64,000 bases of DNA from an uncultured Planctomycetales bacterium (GCA_964645795.1 CAZYCL010000001.1:95194-159193); one strand, 5' to 3'. Positions 1-44,336 are shown, numbered from the stretch's first letter. The notes: generated by a model from the sequence alone, not told the origin. Translations and numbers: made by a program.

Positions 1-496
1 AGTTTGTTTTTCTGTCTCCCAAGGGAAACTTAACTTTTATAACCTTTGATATGGATTCATAATAAGAAACTGTATCGGTTACAGATAACGGAATTTCATC
101 AGTGTATCTTTTATAAGAATAGGCGAACCAGGCAAAGCCCAACGCCTCAATTGCCGTATGATAATCTCCATCTTTAAACGCTTTCTCGGCACAGCGGTAT
201 GCGACTAATGACATAGCAGGGTAATCCTTAAGGTAGTTGCATACTGTGCCGACAGCCTTGATTATTTCCTTATCGGCATAATTACTTAACTCAAGAGCAT
301 ATTTTAGGTAATAGAGACTGTCTTCCCAAAGACCGACAGACTTTGCCATTCTCATGGCAAGAATGCTTAAACCGAACGCCACCTCTCTTGTTTCTCCTGA
401 ATCAAGAAGGTTTTTTATGCCATCCGCATATTTAAGATGTTCGGCATGGATGAACTTATAGATATTTTGCCTATTATTCAATGAAAATCTCTCCAT
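1..496 (-). CDS. Hypothetical protein. N-terminal part only; the ORF runs off the left edge of the window
   Basis: Open reading frame on the minus strand from ATG at 494-496 (MERFSLNNRQNIYKF...) with no stop before position 1. Not in the ORF track because it is truncated. No recognisable motif. Confidence 0.35.
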   Translation of the reverse strand, partial: MERFSLNNRQNIYKFIHAEHLKYADGIKNLLDSGETREVAFGLSILAMRMAKSVGLWEDSLYYLKYALELSNYADKEIIKAVGTVCNYLKDYPAMSLVAYRCAEKAFKDGDYHTAIEALGFAWFAYSYKRYTDEIPLSVTDTVSYYESISKVIKVKFPLGDRKTN

Positions 497-499
497 AAA

Positions 500-1522
500 T
501 CAATCTTCAGCGAAATTACCTTCGATATCCTGGATATCTAGATTAAAAAATCTCTTCTTGCTGAGTTCGGCGCTTTTTACCAACTTCCAATAATTGTGCT
601 TCCAGGAACGATATTTCCAATCAGGGCAATTCTTGCATAATTCTAATTTGTGTCCCTGCTTATTCAAATGCATCTTTCTAAAATAGTTAAAACCCTCGCT
701 ATGCCAAATATCCTTAATCTGTTTTTCATGAACGTTTCCCATGTCAGTCGTAGCCCTGATATCAAAGCCGCAAACCATCACCTTGCCGCGCGAATCAATG
801 TTAAGCCGCTCAAATAGAAAGGGACATGGAATATGCTCCTCGGGTTCCAAATAGGGATGCGGATCTGCTGATTCCCCCGGATCACTTATATTCCAAGTAA
901 GGTATTTCCTTTTCTGTAGATTATCAACATAACGGCTCCAAAAACTTATTGCCTTATCGACATCGACCCCGACTTGGTTAATAATGCTGGCAATAATTTT
1001 TGTAGGGCTTTTTAATCTATCCCTGAGCTTGCGCATTCGTTTTACGTTTACCACGAGCTTATCCCAATCAAGCCCTTTTCGTACACGCGAATAAGTCGCG
1101 GGATCGCCGGCATCAACACTAAACTCAATCATATCGATACCCGCGTTAAGAAGACGGGTGCTATTCTCTTCGTTAAACAGTGAACCATTGGTAATAAGAC
1201 CGACCTTTGCACCGACCTTCTTAGCGTATTCAAAAAGCTCAACTGCCTTAGCATGCAGCATCGGTTCGCCTCCGCCGGAAATACGCAACCATGCCTTATA
1301 TTGGCCACATTGGTCAGCGATAATTTTGAACGTCTCTCCGGACATTATGGGGGTGTCTTTATAGGTTAAGCGGATATTCGAATTGGTATAAGGACAGTTG
1401 GGGCACCGTGCATTGCAGATATAAACGAACGAGAGTACGCACATCATGGGGAACTCTTCTGCCTCTGCCCTTACCCCATAATACGACTGAGTATGTTCTA
1501 TATCCTGGTTATTTTCCGTCAT
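500..1522 (-). CDS. Radical SAM enzyme with a C-terminal Cys-rich SPASM/twitch-like domain
   Basis: CNARCPNC (CxxxCxxC) near the N-terminus. C-terminal CPF..GKVMVC and CKNCPDW cysteine clusters. Paralogous in architecture to the 4277-5215 protein. Confidence 0.8.
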   Translation of the reverse strand: MTENNQDIEHTQSYYGVRAEAEEFPMMCVLSFVYICNARCPNCPYTNSNIRLTYKDTPIMSGETFKIIADQCGQYKAWLRISGGGEPMLHAKAVELFEYAKKVGAKVGLITNGSLFNEENSTRLLNAGIDMIEFSVDAGDPATYSRVRKGLDWDKLVVNVKRMRKLRDRLKSPTKIIASIINQVGVDVDKAISFWSRYVDNLQKRKYLTWNISDPGESADPHPYLEPEEHIPCPFLFERLNIDSRGKVMVCGFDIRATTDMGNVHEKQIKDIWHSEGFNYFRKMHLNKQGHKLELCKNCPDWKYRSWKHNYWKLVKSAELSKKRFFNLDIQDIEGNFAED

Positions 1523-1911
1523 TTTTTCTCAAAATTGATCGACTGAACCAATCTTTCTGCATGAACAAATCTTCAGATAACTCCTCTTTATCCTACCTTT
1601 ATTAAAAACGGACCTTTCATCTTAAAGATTAATTACAGTTGAAATAATTAAATCAATGCCTATTTTCAGATAACCCTCGCCAGGTCATTTGTCTTTCGGA
1701 ATTTAACCTTCTTCTCAAGCAATGCTAAACAAATTATATGCTCAAGAAAAGTCAAAATCATAATAAAAACGGTGCTTTTGCCATACGATCGCCACTTGTC
1801 AGAACCTTTACTTGATTTCTCCAGGGTAGACAACATTAAATTGTTATATCTCTCGATGCCTTGCTTTTGCTAAAGCGCGCTCTTAATAATGCTACCTTGT
1901 ATTTCATGACA

Positions 1912-2376
1912 TTAACCTTCTTTACCTGAAAGAGCGAAAGATTTAATATATTTGAAACCTTTACGTATGGCACCTTGATATTCTCTTCCTTCCATTCCCT
2001 TCTTAACAAATCCTTTTTTTTCGAAGGCTCTCTGCGCTATTGCATTCCCCTCCCATACCCAAGCCCACATAGAATTCAAACCACTCTTTTTGGCAACACC
2101 CTCTGCCAAATCAAGTAATTGAGAGCCCAAACCCTTACTTGGCTCATTCACGAAAAAAGCTAATTCGTTTTTACGCGCAAGATAAATAATCAAAACCCCC
2201 TGAAGGATATCGTCTTCTACTATGCCAATTATTTCGATATTGGCGTGCGCAAACCACTCTTTGGTCTGCTCTTCCTCTACTGGCTGAGTAATTAGTAGCT
2301 CTTTATATCTATTCCTCAGTTGAACGTATTGACTGATGAATTCTGGTTCATGTTTTAAGTCCACTACTCTCATCAT
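1912..2376 (-). CDS. GNAT-family N-acetyltransferase
   Basis: 154 aa. Central motif QGVLIIYLARKNELAFFVNEPSKGLGSQLL and C-terminal AFEKKGF are typical of the GNAT fold. Confidence 0.55.
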   Translation of the reverse strand: MMRVVDLKHEPEFISQYVQLRNRYKELLITQPVEEEQTKEWFAHANIEIIGIVEDDILQGVLIIYLARKNELAFFVNEPSKGLGSQLLDLAEGVAKKSGLNSMWAWVWEGNAIAQRAFEKKGFVKKGMEGREYQGAIRKGFKYIKSFALSGKEG

Positions 2377-2406
2377 TACTAATCTCGAAATACTGTCTTT
2401 AATAAG

Positions 2407-4269
2407 TTAATTAAAATACGTCTCCCACCAGAGCTGGAACATCATAAGGTTCCAGATATGGCCTGCAAGCCTTTTCTCCCCTAAATAATAGGCCTTAACC
2501 ATAGAGGTAACGGCATCCGACTTGAAATAGCCGTGTTTCTTAAGTCTTTCCTTTGACAGAACGCCTAAAACATAGTTCTTAATATCGCCTCTTAACCAAT
2601 CAAAGATAGGCAAAACAAAACCTTCTTTAGCCCGTGCTGTAATACCTTCAGGCAATAAATCTTTGACCGCCTCTTTAAGGATATATTTGACAACGGCGCC
2701 TTTAATTTTCATAGCATCGGGAACGGTTGCGCAAAACTCTACCAGCCGATGGTCTAAAAAGGGGGAGCGGATTTCGACTGAATGTGCCATTGATAAAAAA
2801 TCAACAAATGCCAATACCTGATCCGGAAGCTGCGTATTCCATTCCATCTCCAATATTCTATTAAGAGGACTGCGAGCAGAAAGACCGTTAAAATACGAAG
2901 AAATGAAACCGAGGCTTGATATTTCTTTTAAATTAGCCTTAAATTTATCGCTTAACAAATTGTCTTTTTCCGAATCGGAAAAAAGATATAACATGTACCG
3001 CCATTTGACTTCGTCGCCATTACTCTTCATAAACAAATTACACAGAAAATCCATCTCGCAAGGCTTAAATAGATTCCTCTCATCATCGCTAAGCGTACCG
3101 CTGCAAATTTTCTCGTAAAGCCGCTGATAATGGAACATCGGCTGCGCTACGCGATGCGTAAGATAGCTGCCGAACAATTCGTCTGCAGCATCTCCGGAAA
3201 GCGCGACTTTCACGTGTTTGCTAATAAGCTTAGTGAGAAAATATGTGGAAATAGTTCCGGAAAAAGGCTGATCGAAACTGGCCACAACACAAGGGAGTTC
3301 ATTAACTAATTCATTATGCGACATAATATATTCATAATGTTCGGTATGGAAGCGCTTTGAAACTTTCCGTGAGAAAAATAGATCAGCTTCCTTGTTCTTT
3401 AACTCATCTTCATAACCCAAGGAAAATGTCTTTACCGGCTGATTGGTAAATTGTGCCATCAGAGCGACAACGGTACTGGAATCAACGCCGCCACTTAGAT
3501 ACGCCCCAAACGGAACATCACAGTTCATGCGTAGCCTTACCGCATCTCCAAGAAGCGAAAGGATGTTCTTTTTTACAAATGCTTCCTCATAATCTTTATT
3601 TTCGTCAAATTTTACTTTCCACCAACGTGAAATAGCAGTTCCGCCGTTAACGAATGTCAAAATACTGCCGGGGTCTAGTGCAAATATATTCTTGTAGGCC
3701 GTTAGTGGAGCAGGGACATGCTTAAAAGTAAAGTAATGATGAAGAGCCTCGTAATTAATCTCCTGGGAATACGACGGGTAAGTAAGAATGCTTTTTATCT
3801 CCGAGGCAAAGACGAGGTTTCCGCCGATCTGAGAATAAAAGAGCGGCTTTACGCCCATGCGGTCCCTGACAAGAACAAGCCTGTCTCTGTTTTTGTCCCA
3901 AAGCGCAATGGCGAACATGCCGTTAAGTTTATGGCAAAAGTCAAGACCATATGCCTCATAAAGGTGCACGATTACTTCGGTATCAGAATGGTGTGTATAA
4001 AAACGGTGGCCCTTTTCTTCCAGCTCTTTGCGCAAGCTGCTAAAATTATAGATCTCGCCGTTAAAGACTAACCAAATACTGCTGTCTTCATTGTGGATCG
4101 GTTGGTGTCCGCTTGCTATGTCGATAATACTTAACCTCCGGATGCCCAGGTTGATCTTCCCGTCGGAAAACAACCCTTCTTCATCCGGGCCGCGGTGGAG
4201 CAGGGAATCCGTCATCCTCTGTAAAACCGTCCTGTTATTTTTTCCTGTAAATCCGCAAATCCCGCACAT
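2407..4269 (-). CDS. Asparagine synthetase (glutamine-hydrolysing)-like amidotransferase; PseA-like candidate for acetamidino formation on a nonulosonic acid
   Basis: Begins MCGICGF (Cys2 Ntn nucleophile). Carries the SGGVDSS PP-loop ATP-pyrophosphatase motif. 620 aa. AsnB homologues in flagellin glycosylation islands (PseA) make Pse5Am. Confidence 0.85.
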   Translation of the reverse strand: MCGICGFTGKNNRTVLQRMTDSLLHRGPDEEGLFSDGKINLGIRRLSIIDIASGHQPIHNEDSSIWLVFNGEIYNFSSLRKELEEKGHRFYTHHSDTEVIVHLYEAYGLDFCHKLNGMFAIALWDKNRDRLVLVRDRMGVKPLFYSQIGGNLVFASEIKSILTYPSYSQEINYEALHHYFTFKHVPAPLTAYKNIFALDPGSILTFVNGGTAISRWWKVKFDENKDYEEAFVKKNILSLLGDAVRLRMNCDVPFGAYLSGGVDSSTVVALMAQFTNQPVKTFSLGYEDELKNKEADLFFSRKVSKRFHTEHYEYIMSHNELVNELPCVVASFDQPFSGTISTYFLTKLISKHVKVALSGDAADELFGSYLTHRVAQPMFHYQRLYEKICSGTLSDDERNLFKPCEMDFLCNLFMKSNGDEVKWRYMLYLFSDSEKDNLLSDKFKANLKEISSLGFISSYFNGLSARSPLNRILEMEWNTQLPDQVLAFVDFLSMAHSVEIRSPFLDHRLVEFCATVPDAMKIKGAVVKYILKEAVKDLLPEGITARAKEGFVLPIFDWLRGDIKNYVLGVLSKERLKKHGYFKSDAVTSMVKAYYLGEKRLAGHIWNLMMFQLWWETYFN

Positions 4270-4276
4270 AAAACAT

Positions 4277-5215
4277 CTAAGGGTTAAGGCTGTGGTAATC
4301 TGCCTTTGCAGACTGCCAATCTCGGCATTCTCTGCAATTCTCAGGCAAAAGATGAAATCTGCCCTGTTTATGTTTATCCCGTAATTCCTTAAGCGGACCG
4401 TTCCATATCTCTTTTATAGAGTTTATATTCAGGTCTCCTGCGATATAGCGGGCATCCAGATCAACCGCACAGGTAACGACTTTTCCGGTATCGGTAATCG
4501 ATAGCGTCTGCATTGCCCAATAGCACGGCCAGCGCTCTTGGTTGCCAAGGACAAGATTCGGCGCATCCACCATCCCGGCCCAGCTTACCTTAGGCCGGAC
4601 TTTTACAATAGCGCCTTCTTTAGTCCAGAAATCAACAAAGGCATCCAATTCATGCCTGTTTTCGTTCATCTCAACAAATTGAACAAAGACCTTAGGTCTG
4701 TTGTAGCCTAATTCTTTCTTAAGGGCTATAAGCCTTTTTACATTACAAACCACCTTTTTGTAATCCCCACCGACTCTTATCCTAGCGTAATTATCGGAGC
4801 TAAAAGCATCAATTCCCACATAAACTGCGTCTAGCCCTGAAGCGATGAGCTTTTTTGCTGCGTCTTCATCGAGAAGGTTGGCATTGGAGTTCATCACCAC
4901 GTTGGCAAGCCCCTTATCCTTGGCATACCTGATCATGTCAAATATGCTAGGACTTGTTTTCTTAAGGATCAGCGCTTCCCCAAAAAATACCATCCAGACG
5001 CGTATATTCTTATTATTTAATGCAATCTCATTGATGATGCTGGTAAACAACTGCCAAGACATAATCCCTTTTTTACGCGTCATGTTCCTGTGCATACACA
5101 TCGCACAGCGAAGGTCGCAAAGACTCACCGTATCAATAAGTACGACAGCGGGAAAACCCCCGCTATCTTCTATCCTGCCGACATCCCGTACGTTGAAATA
5201 GGTGCGCCCCGTCAT
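4277..5215 (-). CDS. Radical SAM enzyme with a SPASM/twitch-like C-terminus; paralog of the 500-1522 protein
   Basis: CDLRCAMC CxxxCxxC motif. C-terminal CYW..GKVVTC and CRECRDW clusters. Confidence 0.8.
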   Translation of the reverse strand: MTGRTYFNVRDVGRIEDSGGFPAVVLIDTVSLCDLRCAMCMHRNMTRKKGIMSWQLFTSIINEIALNNKNIRVWMVFFGEALILKKTSPSIFDMIRYAKDKGLANVVMNSNANLLDEDAAKKLIASGLDAVYVGIDAFSSDNYARIRVGGDYKKVVCNVKRLIALKKELGYNRPKVFVQFVEMNENRHELDAFVDFWTKEGAIVKVRPKVSWAGMVDAPNLVLGNQERWPCYWAMQTLSITDTGKVVTCAVDLDARYIAGDLNINSIKEIWNGPLKELRDKHKQGRFHLLPENCRECRDWQSAKADYHSLNP

Positions 5216-5249
5216 CTATCTACTTTCAAATTTTTCTACGACAAAACAA

Positions 5250-5813
5250 CTATTTAACTTTTAACATTATTCTGTCAGCCATATCTTTAAGCCAGGGAAG
5301 AAATACGTATTCGAGGGAATCCGCCAAAAGGGTGTAATCCCTATTCTGGTATGCCTCGTTTATATCTTTCAGGCAATTAATCAAAGCGGCATAATCAAGG
5401 TCGTAATCTTCCCCTGAATTCAATTCAACCGCGCGCAGCCCCGTCGTAACGGTGCTGATGAGCGGAAGGATCCTGATGTATTCTTCGAGCGCGTTTTTTT
5501 CATCGCCTTTTCTTAATAAAGTAACGACATCTTTCAAGTCCCGCGCAAGATTGGGGAGATTGGCGATAATCTCCTTCAGGGCATCCTGGAGCAATTGCGC
5601 CTTGGGTTTGGTGCAAAGATTCATCGTTTTAACATTGTCCGGGCTGATCGCCGCTAGTTCATGCGGCGCCTTTTCCTTGCCGTCAACTTCAATCTTATAG
5701 ATGAGCTTCTCGGAAGAAGTGACTGCGCTTTTGGCGTAGTCAAAAACTTCCTTCAGGTTATTCATGCCCTCCAGAGACACGCACAACTCGTTGTTATCCA
5801 CTATTATTTTCAT
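5250..5813 (-). CDS. Hypothetical protein
   Basis: ATG at 5811-5813 (MKIIVDNNELCV...) is preceded by GGAGGAAGC. The longer track ORF start lacks an RBS. No recognisable domain. Confidence 0.45.
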   Translation of the reverse strand: MKIIVDNNELCVSLEGMNNLKEVFDYAKSAVTSSEKLIYKIEVDGKEKAPHELAAISPDNVKTMNLCTKPKAQLLQDALKEIIANLPNLARDLKDVVTLLRKGDEKNALEEYIRILPLISTVTTGLRAVELNSGEDYDLDYAALINCLKDINEAYQNRDYTLLADSLEYVFLPWLKDMADRIMLKVK

Positions 5814-5915
5814 GCTTCCTCCTCTTTCCTTGTTCATACTTTACTCGGTAAAAATTCACGGATCCGCTTTTTGCCAAAAACGCTTAAAAGATTAACGTGC
5901 CCTAAAGGCAAATTA

Positions 5916-7775
5916 CTATAGAATGAAAAATCTCCTTATCCCGCAGGAAACCAGCATCGAGTAAAACGACTGCCGGACAAGCTGCAGGCTTGCGCGCAGT
6001 TTTTTTAAAACATCCGACATGCGCAGGATGACCTCGCTGTGGCCCTTAGCCTTGATACGGTTGGTCTCAACCGCTATTCGCATGGACTCTATATCATTTT
6101 TTATCCTATAATCCAGCAAGCTAAGCGTCTTATAGCGGAAAAGCTCGTAGAAATATCCTTGAGTTGCCGCAAAAATACGTTTCTCCTGTTTAGGGGAGAA
6201 ATCCTTCTCGTTCTTGATATAAGCGGCTGCATCGGCCAGGACAGATTCGCCTTTCTTAAGGGAACCGTCGAGCGCCTTGAGCTCCCGCAGGGCCTTTTTA
6301 GCCTTACGGATATACCCCGCATCGAGAACCGGACGGATCTTGCCAAGGCTCTGCTTAAATATAGGGCCTGTATCGAAAGGCGCATTTTTTACGAAGCCAT
6401 CAAATACTTCATCGAGGGTCATGAGCCGCGCACCCTCTATCCTGGCGCCGCCGGCAGTAGCATTGATGAAAGCAATATCGGGAAACCTCCTGATATAACC
6501 CTCCATCCATCGCAAGAATATATAGAAGTAGCGGAAGGTCACCACCTTATCCTCGTAGTTACCTATGGCCTTCATATAATTTATATCATCGGGCCCTATG
6601 TTATAACGCTTATCCTCATGCATGGTGCCTTTGGCGTGAGAACGGTCATTCTCCAGGCAAAGATCCTGACCCACGAAAACAATGGGGTTAAGCCCCAATT
6701 TTACCGCCAGATCCAAGGCGCAGTTAGCTACCGATCCCCCTGATTCAAGATACATCTTCTCTGCCGTTTCCTTTCCCAGCATATAACTTAAAAACGGATT
6801 GGCCATGGAATCAAAAAAGAAGACCCGCGGATAAAACATGGAGACGATCTTAGGAGAGAGGCAGATCTCGGCAAAAAGCCACATGCCGGATGTATCCGTT
6901 ATCCCCTCAAGCTGCTTAAGGACGATGTCGGAAGCATCCAGTACGACCACTATATCCGGCTTGATCCCGTTATTAACCAGAGGCCTTAATGATGTCCCTA
7001 CGCTTATGATAACCGCCTTGGATTGAAATTTCTTGAGTTGCCCGATATTTTTATCCAGAGAAGGACCTGCGGCCACGATAACCCCGGTCCTATCTTTAAA
7101 CGATTTAAAAATAACAGATAAAGGAACGGATTTTAAAGCATCCGGAAGGTTGGTCAAAGAGTTGCTTTCCCAATAAGGCGCCAATTCGTCTATCGCGTTA
7201 TAATCACAGAGTTTGCGCGATGTCACGGTATTTATAAAATCAAGCACCCGGGTAAAATAACCTTCGAATACCCTGCGGTAAGCCGATAGATAAATAATCT
7301 CGGTTTTATAGAGCCCGCTGATTAGATGCGGCGCTATGGCATCTATCATCTTCTGGGGATCGGGATCAACGAAAAGGAGGATGCGCGGATTGGACAGAAT
7401 TTCGCTAAGATCGCCATGGGTAAGCGCGGACTTGAAGATCTCAAGAGAAGGCTCTATGATACAGATGGTGCCGTTAATTTGGGCGCTTTTACGCAGTTGA
7501 TCCACAAGATAGCCAAAACCCATGCCCAGCACAAAAATCACCTGCGTATCCGACAGATCCCTATCTGCCAGCAGATTAAAGGCCTCCTTTACCGGGTCAA
7601 ACAGGCTGTGAAACAGTATCCTTGGCTTATCCTCTGCCCTATAGAAGAAGGTCGCCAGGCCCCGCCGGCTCATCCGGACTTCGATGGATCCCTCAGGCGA
7701 AACGCCTTCAAGCCGTTCAGCAAGCTTTGCGTTGACCCTTTTTAACTCCTCGATATTCTTTGCATAATAGTCCAT
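5916..7775 (-). CDS. maf: Motility accessory factor (Maf, DUF115/MptE-like); putative flagellin nonulosonic-acid transferase
   Basis: Central VIVAAGPSLDKNIG...DIVVVLDASD block typical of DUF115. About 620 aa and located next to fliD. Start chosen at the internal Met (MDYYAKNIEELK) so that it abuts the upstream small ORF. Confidence 0.65.
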   Translation of the reverse strand: MDYYAKNIEELKRVNAKLAERLEGVSPEGSIEVRMSRRGLATFFYRAEDKPRILFHSLFDPVKEAFNLLADRDLSDTQVIFVLGMGFGYLVDQLRKSAQINGTICIIEPSLEIFKSALTHGDLSEILSNPRILLFVDPDPQKMIDAIAPHLISGLYKTEIIYLSAYRRVFEGYFTRVLDFINTVTSRKLCDYNAIDELAPYWESNSLTNLPDALKSVPLSVIFKSFKDRTGVIVAAGPSLDKNIGQLKKFQSKAVIISVGTSLRPLVNNGIKPDIVVVLDASDIVLKQLEGITDTSGMWLFAEICLSPKIVSMFYPRVFFFDSMANPFLSYMLGKETAEKMYLESGGSVANCALDLAVKLGLNPIVFVGQDLCLENDRSHAKGTMHEDKRYNIGPDDINYMKAIGNYEDKVVTFRYFYIFLRWMEGYIRRFPDIAFINATAGGARIEGARLMTLDEVFDGFVKNAPFDTGPIFKQSLGKIRPVLDAGYIRKAKKALRELKALDGSLKKGESVLADAAAYIKNEKDFSPKQEKRIFAATQGYFYELFRYKTLSLLDYRIKNDIESMRIAVETNRIKAKGHSEVILRMSDVLKKLRASLQLVRQSFYSMLVSCGIRRFFIL

Positions 7776-7981
7776 TAGATCAAAAAGAAACCTCCCCCCA
7801 CTCCGCGCCTTACGCCGATGAGCTTTATCTGTTTTAGTTTGCCGACGCATCTTCTGACATAGGCAGGATTGACATTGAGGCTGCGGGATAGATCGAAACT
7901 AGATACGGGACTGCGGTAGCAGGCGTTTTTCTCCCTTAATTCTTTGATTATTTCCTGCTGAAGAAAGCTAAGTCTATACAT
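7775..7981 (-). CDS. Small putative winged-helix DNA-binding protein
   Basis: 68 aa. The stretch DLSRSLNVNPAYVRRCVGKLKQIKLIGVRRGVGGGFFL resembles an Rrf2/MarR-like recognition helix plus wing. No clear RBS. Confidence 0.3.
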   Translation of the reverse strand: MYRLSFLQQEIIKELREKNACYRSPVSSFDLSRSLNVNPAYVRRCVGKLKQIKLIGVRRGVGGGFFLI

Positions 7982-8090
7982 AAGCTTACTAAAAGATACA
8001 AATACTTACACAAGGTAACATTTTAAAAGAAAATTCTTCTCCTTAATATAGCCATGTTCTACAACTCTTTAGGGCTGTAAGGGATTTTTG

Positions 8091-9479
8091 TTAATCAAAG
8101 CTTGGAATTAAACTGTAGCCGCCAAGAGACGCCATAAGAGTCTGGTTCTTGGTCAGAAGGCTATCTAAAGCGGTAAACTTAAGGATCAATACCTGCTGAT
8201 ATGACTCAAGCGCGCGTTCTTTCGCGGCTATCAGATCCTCCAGCCGCTTAACGCTGTCGGAATAAGACAACTGGCTATTTTGCAGGGCGCCCGTAGAAGA
8301 GGCAGTCAGGTCAATATAATCGTTTAGGCGCACAGCCACGCCCGTAGTGGCGGTATTAAATATGGCTTTTACGTCAGAGAGGTTTGCCTGAAGGGCGCTC
8401 TCCAGCTTATCGCTGTCTGTTATGGCAAGGGTGCCTTCTTTGTCCACCTCGATACCTATCACGCCCAGGGAGTTATAATCGCTGGTTATGCCGCTGACGA
8501 CATCGGTCATCAGGGAACGTAAGTCATAGCGAAGTTCACGCACCACGGGATTATTGATGAGCACGCCCATTTGCTTTGTTTCGGTATCATAGGCGCTTAC
8601 CTCTTTGGCGAAGCTGATCACCTCGTTGTAGGCATCGATAAATGACTGGATCTTCTCCGTGATGTTTTCGGTATCCGTAGAGACCTCGACTACCGCCGCT
8701 CCCGTGCTTTTCAGATTCAGCGTAACCTCTCCTATCGCATCGGAAATCACGTTGGAGCTGCGCTGTATACTCAGGGAATCTACGGTCAAAAGCGCATCCT
8801 GCGCCGCCTGGAGCTCATTAAGGAACGCGTTGCTTGCGTCAATTACCTGGCCCGTCTGCAATAAGCTGCCGGTTAGGTCCTGCATGGTCATAGCATTGGT
8901 CAGCCCGGTTTCACCGGAAGTTATCACCAGCCGCGCAGAAGAGCCGGTTTCGTTAACGACAATAGCGGTAGCGTGCGCGCCGGAAGAGTTGATCGCAGTA
9001 GCTATATTAGTAAGCACGGTCTGGTTTGAATCCCCGGCATTAACATCTAAATTAATATCGGTATCCACGCCGTTTATGCTAAGCCTAAACTGCATTGTCC
9101 CTGTACCGGCATCTGAGATGTCCGTGCCGGCGGCGGAAAACTGCGCAGATGCCACCTTATGTTGAGCGGCAAGCTGAGTAATATTGACGTTATACGTCCC
9201 AGAAGCCGCCACTTCCGTGGCAGCAACGCTAACGCGCGACTCGTCAGAGCTGGTCGCGGCCTTAGCTAAAAACGCAGTGCCGCTTTCAAAAGACAAGATC
9301 TTGCTTTTCAAGTAGGAAAGCTTGTTGATTATCTCGCTTAGGGCAGTGCTCTGTTTTTGGGTCGTGGACATTCTTTCTTCTAACGGCGTAATTTGCTGGC
9401 TGCGCCAATTGTTGACCAGGGCCTCAATGATCGCAGAGGTATCCACGCTGCTTCCTAAACTTATGCCGTTAACTAACAT
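8091..9479 (-). CDS. fliD: Flagellar filament cap protein FliD (HAP2)
   Basis: N-terminus GISLGSSVDTSAIIEALVNNWRSQQITPLE... and C-terminal heptad region are typical of FliD. Follows flaG. Confidence 0.85.
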   Translation of the reverse strand: MLVNGISLGSSVDTSAIIEALVNNWRSQQITPLEERMSTTQKQSTALSEIINKLSYLKSKILSFESGTAFLAKAATSSDESRVSVAATEVAASGTYNVNITQLAAQHKVASAQFSAAGTDISDAGTGTMQFRLSINGVDTDINLDVNAGDSNQTVLTNIATAINSSGAHATAIVVNETGSSARLVITSGETGLTNAMTMQDLTGSLLQTGQVIDASNAFLNELQAAQDALLTVDSLSIQRSSNVISDAIGEVTLNLKSTGAAVVEVSTDTENITEKIQSFIDAYNEVISFAKEVSAYDTETKQMGVLINNPVVRELRYDLRSLMTDVVSGITSDYNSLGVIGIEVDKEGTLAITDSDKLESALQANLSDVKAIFNTATTGVAVRLNDYIDLTASSTGALQNSQLSYSDSVKRLEDLIAAKERALESYQQVLILKFTALDSLLTKNQTLMASLGGYSLIPSFD

Positions 9480-9503
9480 GGGAACTGCTCCTTTCTAAAA
9501 ACC

Positions 9504-10001
9504 TCAAGCAAGGATATCGGTGATGACCGCTGTTTGCGTTAAATTCGCGTTAAGCCCAAAACTCTGAGAAGTTTCTCCTGAATCCAGCTCACCCGTACCC
9601 CTGGCCATTAAGATGCGCAAGAGAATATGCAAAGGTATGGTCGTGACCTGGCGATTGGTAATTTTATCAAAAATACGCACCAACTGCTTGCTTTCTTTGG
9701 TTAAAATCAACTCGAAACGCAAACCAAACCTTCCCGTAATCTCCTTGATTTTTTGCATCAGCTCCTGGATCTTCTTTTCGTCATTCTCGCCCAATTTAGC
9801 CTCAAGGCCTTCGATCTTCTTAAGAAGCTCGGCTATCTTCTCAAACCCTATGTCTTTTAATAACTCGCGAAGCGAATTCTTTACCGAAGCTTTTCTATTA
9901 AAGACTTTTTTAGGCGTGTATTCGGTGCCCAGATAGTCAACTTCTACCTGTTGAGTCACCGCTTTAGCCGCAGTTTCCTTTATAACCTCTATCCCGTCCA
10001 T
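9504..10001 (-). CDS. flaG: FlaG family flagellar protein
   Basis: 165 aa acidic protein between the flagellin gene and fliD. The C-terminal VRIFDKITNRQVTTIPLHILLRI segment is FlaG-like. Confidence 0.55.
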   Translation of the reverse strand: MDGIEVIKETAAKAVTQQVEVDYLGTEYTPKKVFNRKASVKNSLRELLKDIGFEKIAELLKKIEGLEAKLGENDEKKIQELMQKIKEITGRFGLRFELILTKESKQLVRIFDKITNRQVTTIPLHILLRILMARGTGELDSGETSQSFGLNANLTQTAVITDILA

Positions 10002-10029
10002 GGTAACCTCTTCTTTGCCCGCCCTGATA

Positions 10030-10066
10030 TATTATAATGACGGCTGGGGGAATAAATCCCCCCAGC
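10030..10066 (-). terminator. Probable intrinsic terminator after the flagellin gene
   Basis: GCUGGGGGG-AUUUAUU-CCCCCCAGC hairpin on the minus-strand transcript, followed by an A/U-rich tract, about 20 nt after the flagellin stop. Confidence 0.4.
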
Positions 10067-10086
10067 ACTTAAAACACCTCTACCTG

Positions 10087-10920
10087 CTATCCTCCGCCAA
10101 TCAGACCCATCGCCAAGGTGGCGGCCGCGTTTGCCTGCGCTAATGCGGCAACACCAGACTGAACGATTATCTGTGAATTGGTAAGGTTGGTTGTTTCTGC
10201 CGCGATGTCGGCATCATAGATCCTGGAACGAGCTGCTTTAAGGTTAGTGCTGTAGGACTCCTGGGCTGCGGTTGAACGCATCCAACCACTTGCCTGGGCA
10301 CCTAATGCAGCTATTGTCGGACCAACGGTTACCCTTACCGCAGATTTTATCTGCAGGATAGCGCTGTCCGCGCGCTGGATGGTGGAAATTGCCAATCCGG
10401 TAAGAGCTAAACCGCTACCACCGGCGGTCATCGTCTGGATGGACATAGTGACTACATCGGCTGCGGAAGCACCGGTCTGGATGGTTACGCCGGCCAAACT
10501 TCCGTTCATTAATACCCTGCCGTTGTAGTTGGCATTGGTCGTCAACCTCTGAATTTCGCTGATCAACTCCTGAAATTCATAGTTGTATGTGTTTCTCTGA
10601 TCGGGGGTCATCAAACCATTCTTTGCCAGGTATGCCAACTCGTTCATCCTCTGCAAATCGTCCTGGACGACGCGCAGAAATGAATCGGCGGTATTCAAGG
10701 CATCGATGGCCATATACAGGTTATTGGTACCGACATCAGTACCAGTAATCTGGAACTGCATCTGCAGGGCCATTAGATAACCTGCCGGATCGTCGTATGC
10801 GTGATTGATTCTGGAACCAGAAGAGAGTTTCTCTAGAGCCGATGTCAACGCCCTCTGCGTATACGTGAGGTTCGTCTGGGCTACCAGAGACATCGTATTG
10901 GTGAGAATTCTAAAACCCAT
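10087..10920 (-). CDS. fliC: Flagellin; short form with D0/D1 domains only
   Basis: N-terminus MGFRILTNTMSLVAQTNL and C-terminus ...QANAAATLAMGLIGG are canonical flagellin. 277 aa with a Ser/Thr-rich middle. AAGGAGG ribosome-binding site. Confidence 0.9.
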   Translation of the reverse strand: MGFRILTNTMSLVAQTNLTYTQRALTSALEKLSSGSRINHAYDDPAGYLMALQMQFQITGTDVGTNNLYMAIDALNTADSFLRVVQDDLQRMNELAYLAKNGLMTPDQRNTYNYEFQELISEIQRLTTNANYNGRVLMNGSLAGVTIQTGASAADVVTMSIQTMTAGGSGLALTGLAISTIQRADSAILQIKSAVRVTVGPTIAALGAQASGWMRSTAAQESYSTNLKAARSRIYDADIAAETTNLTNSQIIVQSGVAALAQANAAATLAMGLIGGG

Positions 10921-17621: not shown

Positions 17622-18426
17622 CTAACGGGCCTAATATTTTGCTGATTTTCCCAACGTTAAGCGATGAGTTAAGCGCTCTTTTCTCCTCGCAGGGAAGGCT
17701 TAAAAAATCGATTTTTTCAATAAGGCGCTTATCGAGGCGATTTTCCTCTGCCACCCACAGCGCAAAATCATACCTGCTCATCGTCTTCGGGCAAGCGAGA
17801 TGGTATAAACCTGCGATATTCTTTTTAAGTGCCGCGTAAATCCAACCGCTTAAATCAATGACGTCTGTAGGGTTGAAAATCCGGTTGAACGCTGCTTTGA
17901 CGGGACGCTTATCCTTCAAATTTGAATATACATCTGAATATATGCTCTTTTCCTCAAGATTGCGGGAGTATGTCTGGCTCAGGCGCAAGATAAGATAATC
18001 CCTGATGTTGCCCTCGATAAATTGCTCGGTTTCGCGTTTCAGCTTTCCGTAAAGATTAACCGGGGCCGGCGGGTCAGTCTCCGAATAATTGCCCTTAGCG
18101 CCATCAAAGACCTGATCGGATGAAAGAAATACCACCTTGATCTTTCTGGAGGCCAAATAGGAAATGAATTCCGACGTCTTTTCGACATTTATGCGTCGGG
18201 CAAGCTCCCGGTCTTTAAGACAATCATCGATCTTGACGACAGCCGCAGCGACCACTACCCAATCGCAGGGATCAAACAAAGAGAAATCCCCGCTTAAAAG
18301 ATCGAAGTTTACCAGGCCGTTTTTCTTATGGGAAAGGCAGGTGCCGATTACTTTCTCTTTCCGGGAGAGAAAATTGAAAAGATTGTAACCAATAAGGCCG
18401 GATGCCCCCGCGATTCCTATCGTCAT
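17611..18426 (-). CDS. NAD(P)-dependent sugar reductase, dTDP-4-dehydrorhamnose reductase (RmlD)-like
   Basis: Glycine-rich N-terminus IGIAGASGLIGYNL. The C-terminal substrate-binding region is RmlD-like. Confidence 0.65.
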   Translation of the reverse strand: MTIGIAGASGLIGYNLFNFLSRKEKVIGTCLSHKKNGLVNFDLLSGDFSLFDPCDWVVVAAAVVKIDDCLKDRELARRINVEKTSEFISYLASRKIKVVFLSSDQVFDGAKGNYSETDPPAPVNLYGKLKRETEQFIEGNIRDYLILRLSQTYSRNLEEKSIYSDVYSNLKDKRPVKAAFNRIFNPTDVIDLSGWIYAALKKNIAGLYHLACPKTMSRYDFALWVAEENRLDKRLIEKIDFLSLPCEEKRALNSSLNVGKISKILGPLDES

Positions 18427-19493
18427 ACGAATTCAAGATGACCGCTGTCCGATTCCAGATATTCTAAAATCAGCTTATTCTTGTTATTGGCCACACAGTG
18501 ATGATTGCAGACCAATGAAGGGTTGATCTTAAAGAATTTGTTTTTGTCCGAATACCAAAATTCTTTAAAGCGCCGGTCTTTGATCGAACCTATAAGCCCC
18601 TGCTGTAGGTTATAGGCCTTATCCTGACAGGGATATATATTCATATCCGCCCCGATAACCGGAAGGACCTGAAGATAGGGGCACCAGGCATAATCTTTCT
18701 TGAATTTATCATCCAGCTCATGGTAGGCATCAAAAATCTCGAAACCTTCGCCGGTAAAATCGTTTATCGCACGGCAAACCTGCTCTTTAACAAGGGCGAA
18801 TACCGGCTTATGGTAATCGTTATTCTCTTTACCGTTATTGCTGACAATACAAGGAGAGACCTTGACACTGTCCACTTTCATGCCCTTAAGCCGGGATATA
18901 AAATCGTAGATATGGACAGCGTTCTCCCGGCCCACGATAAAGCTTATTCCCAGATAGCACTTGCCGTTGTGCTTCTTGAACTCTTCGATGTTCTTCATTA
19001 CTTTGCCAAACTCCCCTTTTGCTACCTTGCGATAACTCGAATAGCTCTCCTCATCCCATCCGTCGATGGAGATCCTAAGCCAGGTAGCGTTTTTTGCAAA
19101 AAAATTGGCGATTTCGCCGGTCAACAGCGCCCCGTTGGTAAGGCTGGCGAACTTTATGCCGCCACGCGCCAGATTCTTGACTGCTTCCAGTAAATAGGGA
19201 TAGCAGAAAGGCTCCCCCCCTCCGCTGAAAGTAACTGCCCTGACCTTCATCTCAACAAGATCATCGATGATCTCGAGCATCTTTTCTCTGGGGATAAAAT
19301 CGCGCGTCACCATGTCTTTACCCAGCTGCAGGTTATCTACGCGATAGGCGCAGTAATGGCAGTTGTGGTTACAGACATTGGTAGGCTTGATACGGATATG
19401 TATAGGCGCCAGGATCGCGGGATTCTCCTTGGGCAGCGAATCCAGCTTATCCTTGAAGTGGAAGACCTTGGTCTTTGTGTAGAGGTGCCCCAT
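18423..19493 (-). CDS. Radical SAM enzyme with a SPASM/twitch-like C-terminus
   Basis: CNHNCHYCAY (CxxxCxxC). C-terminal Cys clusters (C..GADMNIYPC, CNHHC). Start set at ATG 19491-19493 (MGHLYTK), 1 nt after the upstream stop. The Arg/Ser-rich 102-aa extension in the track is an overlap artefact. Confidence 0.8.
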   Translation of the reverse strand: MGHLYTKTKVFHFKDKLDSLPKENPAILAPIHIRIKPTNVCNHNCHYCAYRVDNLQLGKDMVTRDFIPREKMLEIIDDLVEMKVRAVTFSGGGEPFCYPYLLEAVKNLARGGIKFASLTNGALLTGEIANFFAKNATWLRISIDGWDEESYSSYRKVAKGEFGKVMKNIEEFKKHNGKCYLGISFIVGRENAVHIYDFISRLKGMKVDSVKVSPCIVSNNGKENNDYHKPVFALVKEQVCRAINDFTGEGFEIFDAYHELDDKFKKDYAWCPYLQVLPVIGADMNIYPCQDKAYNLQQGLIGSIKDRRFKEFWYSDKNKFFKINPSLVCNHHCVANNKNKLILEYLESDSGHLEFV

Positions 19494-19494
19494 T

Positions 19495-20157
19495 TTATTC
19501 GAAGAATATAAACTCGTAATCGCCGGTATAACCGAACTCTTTAAATAAAAACACCCACTCCTCGGGCCTGAAGAACGACTCGCAGGTAAGCGCCCAGCAT
19601 TCCAGATTAAACAGCTCTGCCTCGTCGCGATAACTTTCAACCGCGATATATTTGTTCTTGCCCACTCTCTCGATCTCCTTGACTGCCTTCTTAAGATCAG
19701 GCGCGATAAGATTATGCAAAGTGGTGATGGAGATGACCAGGTCAAACTCCTTCGGCTTAAAAGGGAACTTATCCTGGGCGCGCTGCACAAAAAGGTCATT
19801 TTTTATCTCTTCTTTCGCATCCCCAACGGCGTAGCTTGAGATATCAAAGCCCTTTACTTCGGCTTTGGGAATAAGCCGGGTGAACTCATAAAGCAGGTAT
19901 CCCTTGCCGCAGCCGACATCCAGGATCCGGGCATTCTTGGGCAGGCGGTAATGTTCGATGAGCTTGCGAGCGACCGGCTCCCATCTTCCGTCGTATTTAT
20001 AGCCTCCGTAACCGTAGCGTCTGTCTCCGTCCCAGAAATCCTTACCGTAGGAACGCGCGACCTGCATGCAGTGGATCTTGTCGTCCACCATCCTCTTAAG
20101 GTAATCGCGCTTTGTCCCTTTATGAAGCGAGGTGATGATATTAAGCTCTTTTAACAT
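19495..20157 (-). CDS. Class I SAM-dependent methyltransferase
   Basis: ILDVGCGKGYLLYEFTRLIPKAEVKGFDIS motif. Confidence 0.75.
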   Translation of the reverse strand: MLKELNIITSLHKGTKRDYLKRMVDDKIHCMQVARSYGKDFWDGDRRYGYGGYKYDGRWEPVARKLIEHYRLPKNARILDVGCGKGYLLYEFTRLIPKAEVKGFDISSYAVGDAKEEIKNDLFVQRAQDKFPFKPKEFDLVISITTLHNLIAPDLKKAVKEIERVGKNKYIAVESYRDEAELFNLECWALTCESFFRPEEWVFLFKEFGYTGDYEFIFFE

Positions 20158-21071
20158 TTTGACCTGACTCCTTTGATAAACTGAAATATCCTGTCCGCGG
20201 ATATGCCGAAATAATCGCGCATTCCGTCGGTAGTTTTTACCTCATGGAGGAACCTGTCGGCTATGCCCAGACAAAACAGCTTCCAGGGGACATCGGTCCT
20301 GGATCTTTCCCTGGCGATAATGCTGCCAAGGCCGCAGCCGATAAAATGCTCCTCTACGCACAATACCGTCTTGCAACTCTCCAGCAGCTTCAAGAGTCTT
20401 TCCTTGTTCAACGGCTGGACCATGGGCACGGATATTAACTTTACGTTAATGCCTTCCTTCTCAAGCATCTGTGCGGCCGCCAATACCTGCGTGCCTATGG
20501 AACCGTGGAATACTATGGCGATATCCCCTATTTCCCGCATGAGGATCGGTGCCGTGATATCGATATCGTGGCCGGCATGCAGTTTGGGCTCCCCCCTTTT
20601 TGCCAGCCTCACATACACAGGTTCCCGGGCAGAAAGAGAATACTCTGCCGCTTTTTGAGCTTCAACCGGGTCAATCGGCGAGATAACCGTCAGGTTCGGC
20701 AAGGTCTGGGCAACACCGATATCCTCTACCGAGTAATGCGTCATTCCTTGCGGCGCATAGGTCACGCCGCTGCCGATACCTGCCAGCACAACAGGAAGTT
20801 TCTGATAGCATATGTCGTTTCTAACCTGCTCATAACAGCGGTACAAAAGAAAAGGGATGATATTGTACAGGTAAACTTTGAACCCTGCCATGCTCATGCC
20901 TGCCGCAAAGCTGGTAGCGTTCTGCTCAGCCACGCCTAAATTGAGGAACTGCTCAGGAGAATCCTTCTGAAACTCATCGAATACCCCCAGGCCTGCATCT
21001 TCGCTTATAATAAATATATCTTTTCTTTGCTTAGAGGACTCTATTATCTTATTGATAAAGGTATTTCTCAT
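20151..21071 (-). CDS. Transketolase, C-terminal (pyrimidine-binding) subunit
   Basis: 306 aa with a Transket_pyr-like core. Stop/start overlaps the N-terminal subunit gene, as in split transketolases. Confidence 0.85.
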   Translation of the reverse strand: MRNTFINKIIESSKQRKDIFIISEDAGLGVFDEFQKDSPEQFLNLGVAEQNATSFAAGMSMAGFKVYLYNIIPFLLYRCYEQVRNDICYQKLPVVLAGIGSGVTYAPQGMTHYSVEDIGVAQTLPNLTVISPIDPVEAQKAAEYSLSAREPVYVRLAKRGEPKLHAGHDIDITAPILMREIGDIAIVFHGSIGTQVLAAAQMLEKEGINVKLISVPMVQPLNKERLLKLLESCKTVLCVEEHFIGCGLGSIIARERSRTDVPWKLFCLGIADRFLHEVKTTDGMRDYFGISADRIFQFIKGVRSKC

Positions 21072-21850
21072 CCCAATTCCTTTAACGCCTTCTCTTTTAT
21101 CTCGTCGGTCACCAGGTAATAATGCCAGACAAGCTCATCCTCCATAAAAGATACGCCTTTGCCCTTGGTCGTGCAGCAAAGGATGATCTTTGGCTTTCCG
21201 GGGCAGTCGGCATTCAGCGCCTCTTCGATCTGGGAATAATCGTGTCCGCCGGCCTCAAATACTCCCCAGCCGAACGATTCCCACTTTTTACGCAACGGCT
21301 CAAAATGGCAGATCTCTTTGGCGCGGCCGTAGCCCTGAAGGTTGTTGAAATCTACAAGAGCGGTGAAGTTATCGATGTTCAGCTTGGAGGCGAAGAGCGC
21401 GCCTTCCCAGATAGAGCCCTCCTGCGACTCTCCGTCGCCGATAAGGGCATAGACTTTGCGGTTGTTTGCCTGCTTCTTAAAAGCATAAGCAAGCCCCAAG
21501 CCGACGTTGAAGCCGTGGCCGAGAGAGCCCGCGGAAACTTCTATGCCCCTGGCAGAGAATCGGTCCAGGTGCGCAGGAAGCGTCCCATTGTTTAAATAGT
21601 AACCATCGAGTGTGGCGGCATCGATGATGCCTTTCTGCGCCAAGGTCGCATAAAGCGATATTGCCGCATGCCCTTTACTTAAAATAAAGATGTCCCTTTT
21701 GTCCCAGGGCTCAAGCACGAGCTTCCTGAAGTAAAGCGTGGCAAGGATATCCACGCAGGACAAAGCCGAGCCCACGTGGGGGCTCTTGGAGCGATGCGCG
21801 GCAATGATTATCTTCTTTCTTATCTGCCTGGCAATATCTTTTAGGTCCAT
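21068..21850 (-). CDS. Transketolase, N-terminal (thiamine-diphosphate-binding) subunit
   Basis: SKGHAAISLYATLAQKG...GSLGHGFNVGLGLAYAFK...LIGDGESQEGSIWEGALFASKLNIDN are TPP-binding motifs. Confidence 0.85.
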   Translation of the reverse strand: MDLKDIARQIRKKIIIAAHRSKSPHVGSALSCVDILATLYFRKLVLEPWDKRDIFILSKGHAAISLYATLAQKGIIDAATLDGYYLNNGTLPAHLDRFSARGIEVSAGSLGHGFNVGLGLAYAFKKQANNRKVYALIGDGESQEGSIWEGALFASKLNIDNFTALVDFNNLQGYGRAKEICHFEPLRKKWESFGWGVFEAGGHDYSQIEEALNADCPGKPKIILCCTTKGKGVSFMEDELVWHYYLVTDEIKEKALKELG

Positions 21851-22915
21851 TTAAATAAAGTTTATATGCCTGACTTTGGGGTTCTTGATCTCCCAGAGGA
21901 ACTCGTTTATCTGGTGCGGCCGGCAGTTGGGAGGGCACCTGCTTACGTCAAGCCTCTTTTCAAGGAGGCTTTTTATGCGCTTGCGCCTCGGCCCTTTCCA
22001 GATATCTGCGAACGAATCCTTGTAGATGTTGCCGAAAACGAACTCTTTTTTGTCCCAATGCGGCAGGCAGGCGGCGATATCGCCTGCGGAGTTGAGGGTC
22101 GAAATAAAGCTGGTGCCGTAACAATGACGATAGCCTCTTTTTCCGTATTCACAAAATGACTGCCTGCGGGCGATCACTGAAAAATTCTTCGTAGAAAGCT
22201 TTTCTGCGGCATCCAGGGAGCGTCTTAGCGAAATCGCGCTGAACTTTTTGGGTTTATAGTTTTGAAGCCGGCTCTGGTGTACGAACGGCTTGATGGCAAA
22301 ATAATCCACTCCCCGCTTTTTCGTTTCCCTGACCGCAGCCAGCAAATACCTGATGTTCTCCGGAATAAGCACGAATTGTATCCCGATATCCAGCTTAAGC
22401 CTCTTCATTCTTTTTATCTCACAGGAATTCTTTATGTTATCCAGGACCGTCGCGAATACCTCCTTTTTGACCCCGTGGATTGCCGCGTAGTTTTCCGGGC
22501 TTCCGGCGTTAAAACTAAAACGGACAAACGTCAGGCAGGCAAGGATCTCGGCGGCCAAATCGCGGTTAAGGAATTGCCCGTTGGTGAACATCCCGACGTC
22601 GATGCCGCATTGTTTAGAAAACTTTACGAGGCGAGCAATATCAGGATGGAGCAAAGGCTCCCCCTCGCCGGCAAACAGGATGCTCTTCAGGCCGCAGGAT
22701 GCGGCTTGCCTGATGAAAGAAAGCATCTTTTTTGTATCGAGCCTGCGGTTAGGATAACCGATAAAATCATAGGCGCAAAATATGCAACGGTGGTTGCACC
22801 TGCCGACGGGGCTGACTTCCATGTATAGGGGAAAACAATCGCCTTTTTCCAGGAATAGGTTAACCCTGGGCAAGTGATACGTAAGCTTATGCCCGTCAAA
22901 AATGAATTTGGCCAT
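21851..22915 (-). CDS. Radical SAM enzyme with a Cys-rich C-terminus
   Basis: VSPVGRCNHRCIFCAYDF. C-terminal CLPHW..SRCPPNC. Related to the 18423-19493 protein. Confidence 0.8.
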   Translation of the reverse strand: MAKFIFDGHKLTYHLPRVNLFLEKGDCFPLYMEVSPVGRCNHRCIFCAYDFIGYPNRRLDTKKMLSFIRQAASCGLKSILFAGEGEPLLHPDIARLVKFSKQCGIDVGMFTNGQFLNRDLAAEILACLTFVRFSFNAGSPENYAAIHGVKKEVFATVLDNIKNSCEIKRMKRLKLDIGIQFVLIPENIRYLLAAVRETKKRGVDYFAIKPFVHQSRLQNYKPKKFSAISLRRSLDAAEKLSTKNFSVIARRQSFCEYGKRGYRHCYGTSFISTLNSAGDIAACLPHWDKKEFVFGNIYKDSFADIWKGPRRKRIKSLLEKRLDVSRCPPNCRPHQINEFLWEIKNPKVRHINFI

Positions 22916-30063: not shown

Positions 30064-30121
30064 TTTTCCTCAATGCTGCATTTTTAGATACAGACAAAAA
30101 TCTTGGCAATTTTGGCTATTT

Positions 30122-38763: not shown

Positions 38764-38765
38764 TT

Positions 38766-39170: not shown

Positions 39171-39180
39171 GGCCTCTCCT

Positions 39181-40317: not shown

Positions 40318-40337
40318 CTTAACCCACCTCTGCTTTT

Positions 40338-40976: not shown

Positions 40977-41015
40977 TTTATTCTCCCCGTATGGATAATA
41001 TAGCAAAATATCGCA

Positions 41016-41729: not shown

Positions 41730-41783
41730 ATAAAGCCTCCCCCGGCCGCGATTATGGCAGCCGGAAGGTTTTGAGCCGATCTT

Positions 41784-42578: not shown

Positions 42579-42601
42579 AAGAAAACCACCTCCTTAGTTT
42601 G

Positions 42602-43357: not shown

Positions 43358-43377
43358 CTGCCACCTCCTTTCAAAGA

Positions 43378-44334: not shown

Positions 44335-44336
44335 TT

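Follow-up and report, generated by a model that had tools for sequence, protein, structure and literature searches.

A Maf-Containing Trio and a Portable Candidate Aminosugar Cassette with Two Radical SAM Enzymes between fliD and fliS of an Uncultured Planctomycetales Bacterium

We analyzed the region between the flagellar genes fliD and fliS of an uncultured Planctomycetales bacterium, using a 64-kb window (the whole stretch of 64,000 nucleotides under analysis, GCA_964645795.1 CAZYCL010000001.1:95194-159193) from which all coordinates are taken unless another record is named; families were assigned by Pfam and NCBIfam scans. The fliD-fliS interval comprises everything from position 7981 leftward and divides into two adjoining modules. 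In Module A (5250-7981), a trio of genes encodes a 68-aa winged helix-turn-helix (wHTH) protein, Maf, and a protein of the DUF8042 family. Module B, which spans 1-5215 and a further 4.9 kb past the window, encodes a radical S-adenosylmethionine (SAM) enzyme (rSAM1), an AsnB-like amidotransferase, a GNAT acetyltransferase, a second radical SAM enzyme (rSAM2), a family 4 glycosyltransferase (GT4), a WbqC-family protein, an RmlB-like short-chain dehydrogenase/reductase (SDR), and a PseC/ArnB-like aminotransferase. The locus is of the known Maf/nonulosonate kind of flagellin glycosylation locus, extended by a widely shared candidate aminosugar cassette. We proposed, with a probability of roughly 0.6, that the interval joins the Maf trio to a portable cassette whose product, a 4-amino sugar bearing a carboxamide, is destined for the glycan of flagellin.

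Organization of the fliD-fliS Interval

Every gene from 500 to 10920 is encoded on the minus strand (table 1). The first-pass annotation of this DNA had described a sub-island at 500-7775, directly downstream of fliD, with genes for Maf, a hypothetical protein, a radical SAM enzyme, an AsnB-like amidotransferase, a GNAT, and a further radical SAM enzyme. All six genes were present where it had placed them, and the glycan-related set does lie downstream of fliD, between fliD and fliS; the extent of the sub-island had to be revised, because the GT4 gene from ~496 continues leftward off the window. fliS is absent from the window, as had been claimed, and was located ~4.9 kb outside it on an identical public contig (99.8-100% identity over the stretches compared), where the order past the left edge is GT4, WbqC, RmlB-like SDR, PseC/ArnB-like aminotransferase, and FliS.

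From the cassette through fliS the genes share one strand and are separated by short spacers, and the start of fliS overlaps the stop of the aminotransferase gene by 4 nt. The GC content at third codon positions (GC3) is 0.37-0.46 in the AsnB-like, GNAT, rSAM2, and GT4 genes versus 0.50-0.59 in the rest of the interval, and this low GC3 from AsnB-like to GT4 is consistent with acquisition by transfer.

Table 1. Features of the flagellin-to-fliS region
Feature	Position	Strand	Length	Remarks
Flagellin	10087-10920	-
FlaG-like open reading frame (ORF)	9504-10001	-		Weak Pfam FlaG match, E 0.009
FliD	8091-9479	-		Pfam FliD_N and FliD_C; upstream boundary of the insertion interval
wHTH protein (Rrf2-like)	7775-7981	-	68 aa	Pfam Rrf2
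Maf	5916-7775	-	619 aa	MptE-like, Maf_flag10_N
DUF8042/TP0873_N protein	5250-5813	-	187 aa	Alternative start 5837 gives 195 aa
rSAM1	4277-5215	-	312 aa	Radical_SAM E 4e-13, SPASM E 1e-9
AsnB-like amidotransferase	2407-4269	-	620 aa	GATase_7 E 3e-47, Asn_synthase E 6e-87
GNAT	1912-2376	-	154 aa	Acetyltransf_1 E 3e-7
Gap within cassette	1523-1911		389 nt	Intergenic
rSAM2	500-1522	-	340 aa	Pfam Radical_SAM and SPASM
GT4, N-terminal part	1-496	-	543 aa (full gene)	ORF runs off the window; Glycos_transf_1
WbqC-family protein	Beyond left edge		231 aa
RmlB-like SDR	Beyond window, L001 17078-18112		344 aa
PseC/ArnB-like aminotransferase	Beyond left edge		409 aa
FliS	Beyond window, ~4.9 kb		144 aa	TIGR00208 55.1 bits, cutoff 53.75

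A Conserved Cassette in Many Phyla

Gene content, synteny, and catalytic motifs were compared among 55 loci fetched from GTDB species representatives, a set that did not include the window's genome, and tblastn synteny identified 36 non-redundant loci in which the rSAM1 and AsnB-like genes are adjacent. These 36 loci represent at least 12 phyla, and the cassette recurring in them comprises rSAM1, the AsnB-like enzyme, a GNAT or formyltransferase, rSAM2, WbqC, the RmlB-like SDR, and a C4 aminotransferase. WbqC was found in 32 of them, rSAM2 in 31, the SDR in 28, the aminotransferase in 25, and GNAT in 20, with absences mostly attributable to short contigs; GT2 genes (13/36), flippase-like genes (7/36), ManC/HddC-type nucleotidyltransferase genes (6/36), and GT4 genes (5/36) were also observed. 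The core genes are mostly 55-70% identical, the aminotransferase and GNAT excepted; the AsnB-like orthologues share 44-68% identity, and rSAM1 homologues 53-67% across phyla. The same cassette lies within a non-flagellar polysaccharide locus of Trichlorobacter lovleyi (CP058409, 3428934-3449881), the sole locus from a complete chromosome record (3.7 Mb), the others coming from metagenome-assembled genomes. No homologues of NeuB, Maf, or flagellin were found within 10 kb in any of the 55 loci. As judged from this synteny, Module B appears to be a horizontally mobile, portable cassette.

The AsnB-like protein shows the superfamily's catalytic Cys2 at an MCGICG N-terminus, a glutamine pocket (NGEIYN), and an SGGVDS PP-loop, and matches TIGR01536 at 483.9 bits (cutoff 267). 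Its best model was TIGR03108 (XrtA/PEP-CTERM amidotransferase) at 521 bits, below the cutoff of 817, and its best match in the Protein Data Bank (PDB) was the AsnB-like hydroxyamidotransferase 7YLZ (E 2.6e-67). The SGGxDS PP-loop is conserved in 35 of the 36 orthologues. The public gene call (L001 11001-12809; 602 aa) starts 18 codons late and loses the catalytic Cys2; because all 36 orthologues begin with MCGI, the 620-aa start is correct and the 602-aa call is wrong.

Predicted Product of the Cassette

Because AsnB-type enzymes adenylate a carboxylate and then amidate it, the product of the cassette should carry a carboxamide. Likewise, the combination of an RmlB-like SDR with a C4 aminotransferase and with alternating GNAT and formyltransferase genes points to a 4-amino sugar with a capped amine. 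Module B probably supplies the flagellin glycan with a 4-amino sugar that bears a carboxamide, by chemical steps that are all predicted. The SDR would oxidize a nucleoside diphosphate-sugar at C4, and the PseC/ArnB-type aminotransferase would then yield the 4-amino sugar. GNAT would cap an amine with an acetyl group, or the formyltransferase of other genomes with a formyl group. The AsnB-like enzyme would adenylate a carboxylate and convert it to the carboxamide with ammonia from glutamine. This carboxylate could belong to an acyl or aminoacyl group that a BshC-like WbqC perhaps installs and that is then N-capped and amidated, or it could be a C6 carboxyl that has been retained. The two radical SAM enzymes would perform two radical tailoring steps, and GT4 would attach the completed sugar to the glycan on flagellin.

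GNAT belongs to its family by both score (PF00583, Acetyltransf_1, 31.1 bits against a cutoff of 20.7) and motif (KGLGSQ). A formyltransferase resembling Fmt and the ArnA N-terminal domain (ArnA-N) occurs in 8 of the 36 loci, 6 times in the GNAT slot between the AsnB-like and rSAM2 genes. The GNAT-rSAM2 gap is longer in the window's genome (389 nt) than at orthologous loci (~5-110 nt). We considered this gap as a decayed formyltransferase gene or a conserved element and rejected both, having found no protein or DNA similarity to the other fetched loci; promoter-like sites in the gap were no commoner than in shuffled sequence. The gap may hold an internal promoter.

The SDR is nearest to RmlB, scoring 243 bits to 2HUN versus 105 bits to UDP-glucuronic acid (UDP-GlcA) decarboxylases, and retains the YxxxK motif; however, it falls below the RmlB cutoff (TIGR01181, 320 vs 365 bits), and all 29 cassette SDRs carry Ser at the position of the catalytic Asp (TSE or SSE for TDE, e.g., HISTSEVYG). 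RmlB paralogues with the canonical STDEVYG are encoded upstream in two loci, L010 and L013. The SDR may therefore oxidize C4 without 4,6-dehydration, and the serine, together with the exchange of GNAT for formyltransferase, offers a clue to the product.

These features bear on an explanation in which the AsnB-like enzyme amidates the C6 carboxylate of a uronic acid: C4 oxidation without dehydration would lead, along an Arn-like route keeping C6, to a 4-acylamido-4-deoxy-hexuronamide. The replaced Asp in 29 of 29 SDRs and the TDE-bearing paralogues speak for such a route, and the aminotransferase, which is of the PseC/ArnB C4 type, scores almost as high as ArnB as it does as PseC; the formyltransferase is ArnA-N-like, and GT2 and flippase-like genes accompany a number of cassettes. 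We nevertheless consider a hexuronamide unlikely, if worth keeping in mind, because the SDR is far nearer to RmlB than to the UDP-GlcA decarboxylases, a UDP-sugar 6-dehydrogenase signature was found in no locus, and the Ser-Glu pair is also used by GDP-mannose dehydratases.

For WbqC, neither single-sequence nor profile searches gave a PDB sequence match, and the literature search returned nothing informative. Its AlphaFold2 model (mean confidence, pLDDT, 93.6) best matched BshC (4WBD; probability 0.94, query TM-score 0.45, E 0.025), followed by class I aminoacyl-tRNA synthetases and nucleotidyltransferases, all weakly. The model suggests that WbqC might join the amine of the sugar to an acid or amino acid. 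Modified viosamine and N-acetylglutamine-bearing pseudaminic acid (Pse) are both known on flagellins (PMC3958885).

Target of the Cassette

The assignment of the cassette to flagellin is drawn from its location, and a second explanation takes that location as accidental: the cassette would serve another envelope glycan, such as lipopolysaccharide (LPS), an S-layer, or an exopolysaccharide, and Module A alone would be flagellar. Elsewhere the cassette indeed lies among polysaccharide genes (GT2, flippase-like, Wzx, and ABC transporter genes), and the low GC3 suggests that its arrival was recent. Against this, the cassette shares its strand with the flagellar genes and overlaps fliS through the aminotransferase gene, the short spacers imply that it is transcribed together with late flagellar genes, and a dedicated soluble GT4 is present here with no flippase or polyprenyl-type GT2. 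A purely envelope role for this copy is accordingly improbable in our estimation.

Several observations weigh against the proposed carboxamide-aminosugar route to flagellin. Only gene position indicates flagellin as the target, and fliD and fliS were found near the cassette in just one other locus (L010). With Ser in place of Asp the SDR may not be a 4,6-dehydratase, which makes the type of sugar less certain, and the likeness of WbqC to BshC is weak. The literature search found no experimental characterization of any cassette gene and no paper tying radical SAM enzymes to flagellin glycosylation. Finally, rSAM1 homologues that are ~61% identical stand alone in 12 loci, with other cassette genes undetected nearby (L015, L019, L023, L024, L030, L032, L033, L038, L040, L043, L045, and L051; at about position 10000 in most), so that rSAM1 may not be sugar-specific.

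Identity of the AsnB-Like Amidotransferase

The first-pass annotation had compared the AsnB-like enzyme with Campylobacter PseA and suggested that it converts an acetamido to an acetamidino group on the nonulosonate made by the genes at 33-38 kb. The presence of those genes was borne out (NeuC passes TIGR03568 and NeuB passes TIGR03569), and an extended form of this explanation would have GNAT and the radical SAM enzymes further tailor a Leg/Neu-type nonulosonate. Maf is adjacent, the C-terminal domain of AsnB and PseA-type enzymes share PP-loop ATP chemistry, and the AsnB-like protein is the only one in the window with an SGGxDS PP-loop. The identity itself failed: among the nine NCBIfam families matched at E <= 0.01, N-acetyl sugar amidotransferase was absent. 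The PseA family, which we take to be WbuX/TIGR03573, presumably consists of PP-loop enzymes without a glutamine amidotransferase domain, whereas the window's enzyme has a full one, typical of carboxylate amidation. NeuB was missing near the cassette throughout the 55 related loci, the 36 orthologue loci among them, and an SDR and an aminotransferase are part of the cassette itself; in the window's genome NeuB lies 32 kb away. The family-model mismatch and the absence of NeuB at the cassette loci rule out PseA membership, and the nonulosonate is unlikely to be the general substrate of the AsnB-like enzyme. A PseA-like function of the enzyme in this particular organism, where it is the sole PP-loop protein of its kind in the window, is likewise unlikely, and we give acetamidino formation as a whole very little credence. 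In published annotations the product of pseA is named "N-acetyl sugar amidotransferase" (PMC6371046) or "acetamidino-synthase" (PMC13317340).

The first-pass annotation had also raised the question of whether the gene groups with housekeeping AsnB; although it passes the generic TIGR01536 model, a housekeeping asparagine synthetase is almost certainly the wrong assignment, as the protein scores 308 bits where NF006949 requires 499 and its gene is fixed beside rSAM1 in 36 glycan loci, in synteny with polysaccharide genes.

The DNA beyond fliS (L062 16103-18677) encodes a dehydratase that resembles PseB but scores below its cutoff (334 bits), followed by a 153-aa ORF and another DegT aminotransferase. 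Together they probably carry out the early steps of a nonulosonate pathway supplying the NeuC and NeuB of the window.

Radical SAM Enzymes

The two radical SAM enzymes had been called paralogous, and the first of them twitch-type. The paralogy was confirmed by a full-length alignment (27% identity, E 4e-33), and the twitch label is reasonable for both, since each enzyme has a CX3CX2C motif and exactly four invariant C-terminal Cys. The invariant residues are C33/C37/C40 and C231/C249/C294/C297 in rSAM1, and C36/C40/C43 and C233/C251/C296/C299 in rSAM2 (30 orthologues). Four C-terminal Cys predict a twitch domain with one cluster rather than a SPASM domain with two. Among solved structures, the C-terminus matched only the twitch region of BtrN, and weakly (E 0.0016).

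The neighbors of the lone rSAM1 genes include NnrS, multicopper oxidase, COX1, heavy-metal P-type ATPase, amine oxidase, and P450 genes, with no clear shared theme, and hint at a possible second, non-glycan role for the rSAM1 family. We considered whether the lone proteins form a separate subfamily and rejected this, identities being 64% among cassette members, 66% among lone members, and 61% between the two.

Counting rSAM1 and rSAM2 together with the flagellar glycosylation locus at 14700-38100 (minus strand), there are nine radical SAM genes in all. Three encode B12-binding enzymes with tetratricopeptide repeat (TPR) tails (28444-33162), and the others lie at 34298-35737, 21851-22915, 22916-23815, and ~18423-19493. 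The same locus holds a split transketolase (20151-21850), a FemAB-like gene (26675-27796), four methyltransferase genes, NeuB, NeuC, and a CMP-transferase-like gene.

The wHTH-Maf-DUF8042 Trio

The 68-aa wHTH protein matches Pfam Rrf2 at 33.9 bits (cutoff 30). Its ORF at 7775-7981 was missed by public gene calls, and its stop overlaps the ATG of the Maf gene as TAATG. It is 49-56% identical to homologues in L067, L068, and a JGI contig. The Maf gene lies 316 nt downstream of fliD. Its product matches PF01973 (MptE-like, E 1e-43), PF20157 (Maf_flag10_N, E 4e-6), and a PseD-domain model (E 7e-33); with DUF115, the Maf N-terminal domain, and a location next to fliD it has the hallmarks of the Maf family, for which a transferase role is predicted. 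Maf would transfer the nonulosonate from the 33-38 kb genes to flagellin. No paralogue of it was found within the window.

The third protein carries the precomputed Pfam domains PF27299 and PF26154 (TP0873_N and DUF8042), and in its AlphaFold2 model (pLDDT 90) a small alpha/beta domain at the N-terminus is joined to a four-helix bundle. An exhaustive HMMER search delimited a family of 76 cluster representatives. The gene contexts of five family members were compared, and the DUF8042 gene adjoins fliD in four contexts, with Maf downstream in three of these. In L067 the order is FliD, a 68-aa Rrf2-like wHTH, DUF8042, and Maf; in L068 it is FliD, a 71-aa wHTH, DUF8042, Maf, and FliS; and in the JGI contig a 68-aa wHTH precedes DUF8042. 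Judged by eye alone, L069/L070 has a FliD-like C-terminus, DUF8042, and a Maf-like N-terminus, and in L071 the DUF8042 protein, here a longer one, comes directly after a FliD-like C-terminus. On this comparison, L068, with the trio alone, may represent the basal ("empty") fliD-fliS interval, and the cassette appears to have been inserted between the trio and fliS in the window's genome.

We considered the DUF8042 protein as a relative of FliS or FliT and rejected this (hhalign probability to FliS 0.4%; no FliS or FliT among the Foldseek PDB matches). Metagenome scans with DUF8042 and with Maf gave no matches, nor did a literature search for TP0873. The trio supplies a genomic setting for a DUF family and for a gene that annotation had missed.

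FlgH, FlgI, and FlgA are encoded in the window (38269-45600), which indicates a diderm-type flagellum despite the Bacillus-like flaG-fliD-fliS and fliW-csrA layout.

Comparison with Known Systems

Flagellin glycosylation islands and AsnB-type amidotransferases in glycan loci are already known; here Maf is coupled to a widely distributed, highly conserved cassette with two twitch radical SAM enzymes. To our knowledge, radical chemistry on nucleotide sugars has barely been explored outside antibiotic pathways. If the proposal is true, a radical-SAM carboxamide-aminosugar route serves surface glycans in at least 12 phyla. A bolder version, in which a new route of this kind was recruited to flagellin and the trio forms an unrecognized control or chaperone module for glycosylation, we hold tentatively, at somewhat worse than even odds. 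Gougerotin may offer a chemical parallel; the literature search gave no match for gougerotin together with asparagine synthase.

With Campylobacter jejuni PseA (Cj1316c) the window's enzyme shares a flagellin glycosylation locus and an ATP-dependent, nitrogen-adding tailoring role; however, it is a two-domain AsnB-type protein, and its cassette lacks NeuB in 55 loci. PseA, as we understand it, lacks a class II glutamine amidotransferase domain, has a nonulosonate as its substrate, and activates the carbonyl of an amide. The AsnB types of polysaccharide loci (TIGR03108, and O-antigen uronamide synthases such as WbpS and WbtH) share the two domains, Cys2, the PP-loop, and the glycan setting; the window's enzyme differs in scoring below the cutoff, in being always paired with a twitch radical SAM enzyme, and in having no uronate dehydrogenase nearby. 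BshC, the cysteine-adding enzyme of bacillithiol synthesis, joins an amino acid to the amine of an aminosugar and is the best structural match of WbqC, but the two are 10% identical and differ in length (231 aa for WbqC, 540 for BshC).

Radical SAM/SPASM genes among deoxysugar genes were also observed on two plasmids. Brachyspira hyodysenteriae pBHWA1 (L066) carries seven of them, several ~28% identical to rSAM1, among rfbABCD, rfbF, and amidoligase genes; unlike the cassette, it has ATP-grasp amidoligases in place of the AsnB-like enzyme and no WbqC, and it is non-flagellar and also uncharacterized. Solidesulfovibrio carbinolicus pDCAR1 (L065) has such an array in the order aminotransferase, radical SAM, methyltransferase, WbqC, with asnB 9 kb upstream.

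The Arn system for 4-amino-4-deoxyarabinose (Ara4N; ArnA, ArnB, and ArnC) resembles many cassette loci in combining an SDR, an ArnB-like aminotransferase, an ArnA-N-like formyltransferase, a GT2, and a flippase-like protein. The cassette SDR is RmlB-like and not ArnA-C-like, however; the window has GNAT and GT4, and the radical SAM, AsnB-like, and WbqC proteins are additional. In the modified-viosamine flagellin glycan of Pseudomonas syringae (PMC3958885), dedicated transferases place on flagellin a 4-amino sugar whose N-acyl group is elaborated, and a sugar SDR is again paired with a C4 aminotransferase, but the glycan is made without radical SAM, AsnB-like, WbqC, or Maf proteins, and the cassette SDR lacks the RmlB Asp.

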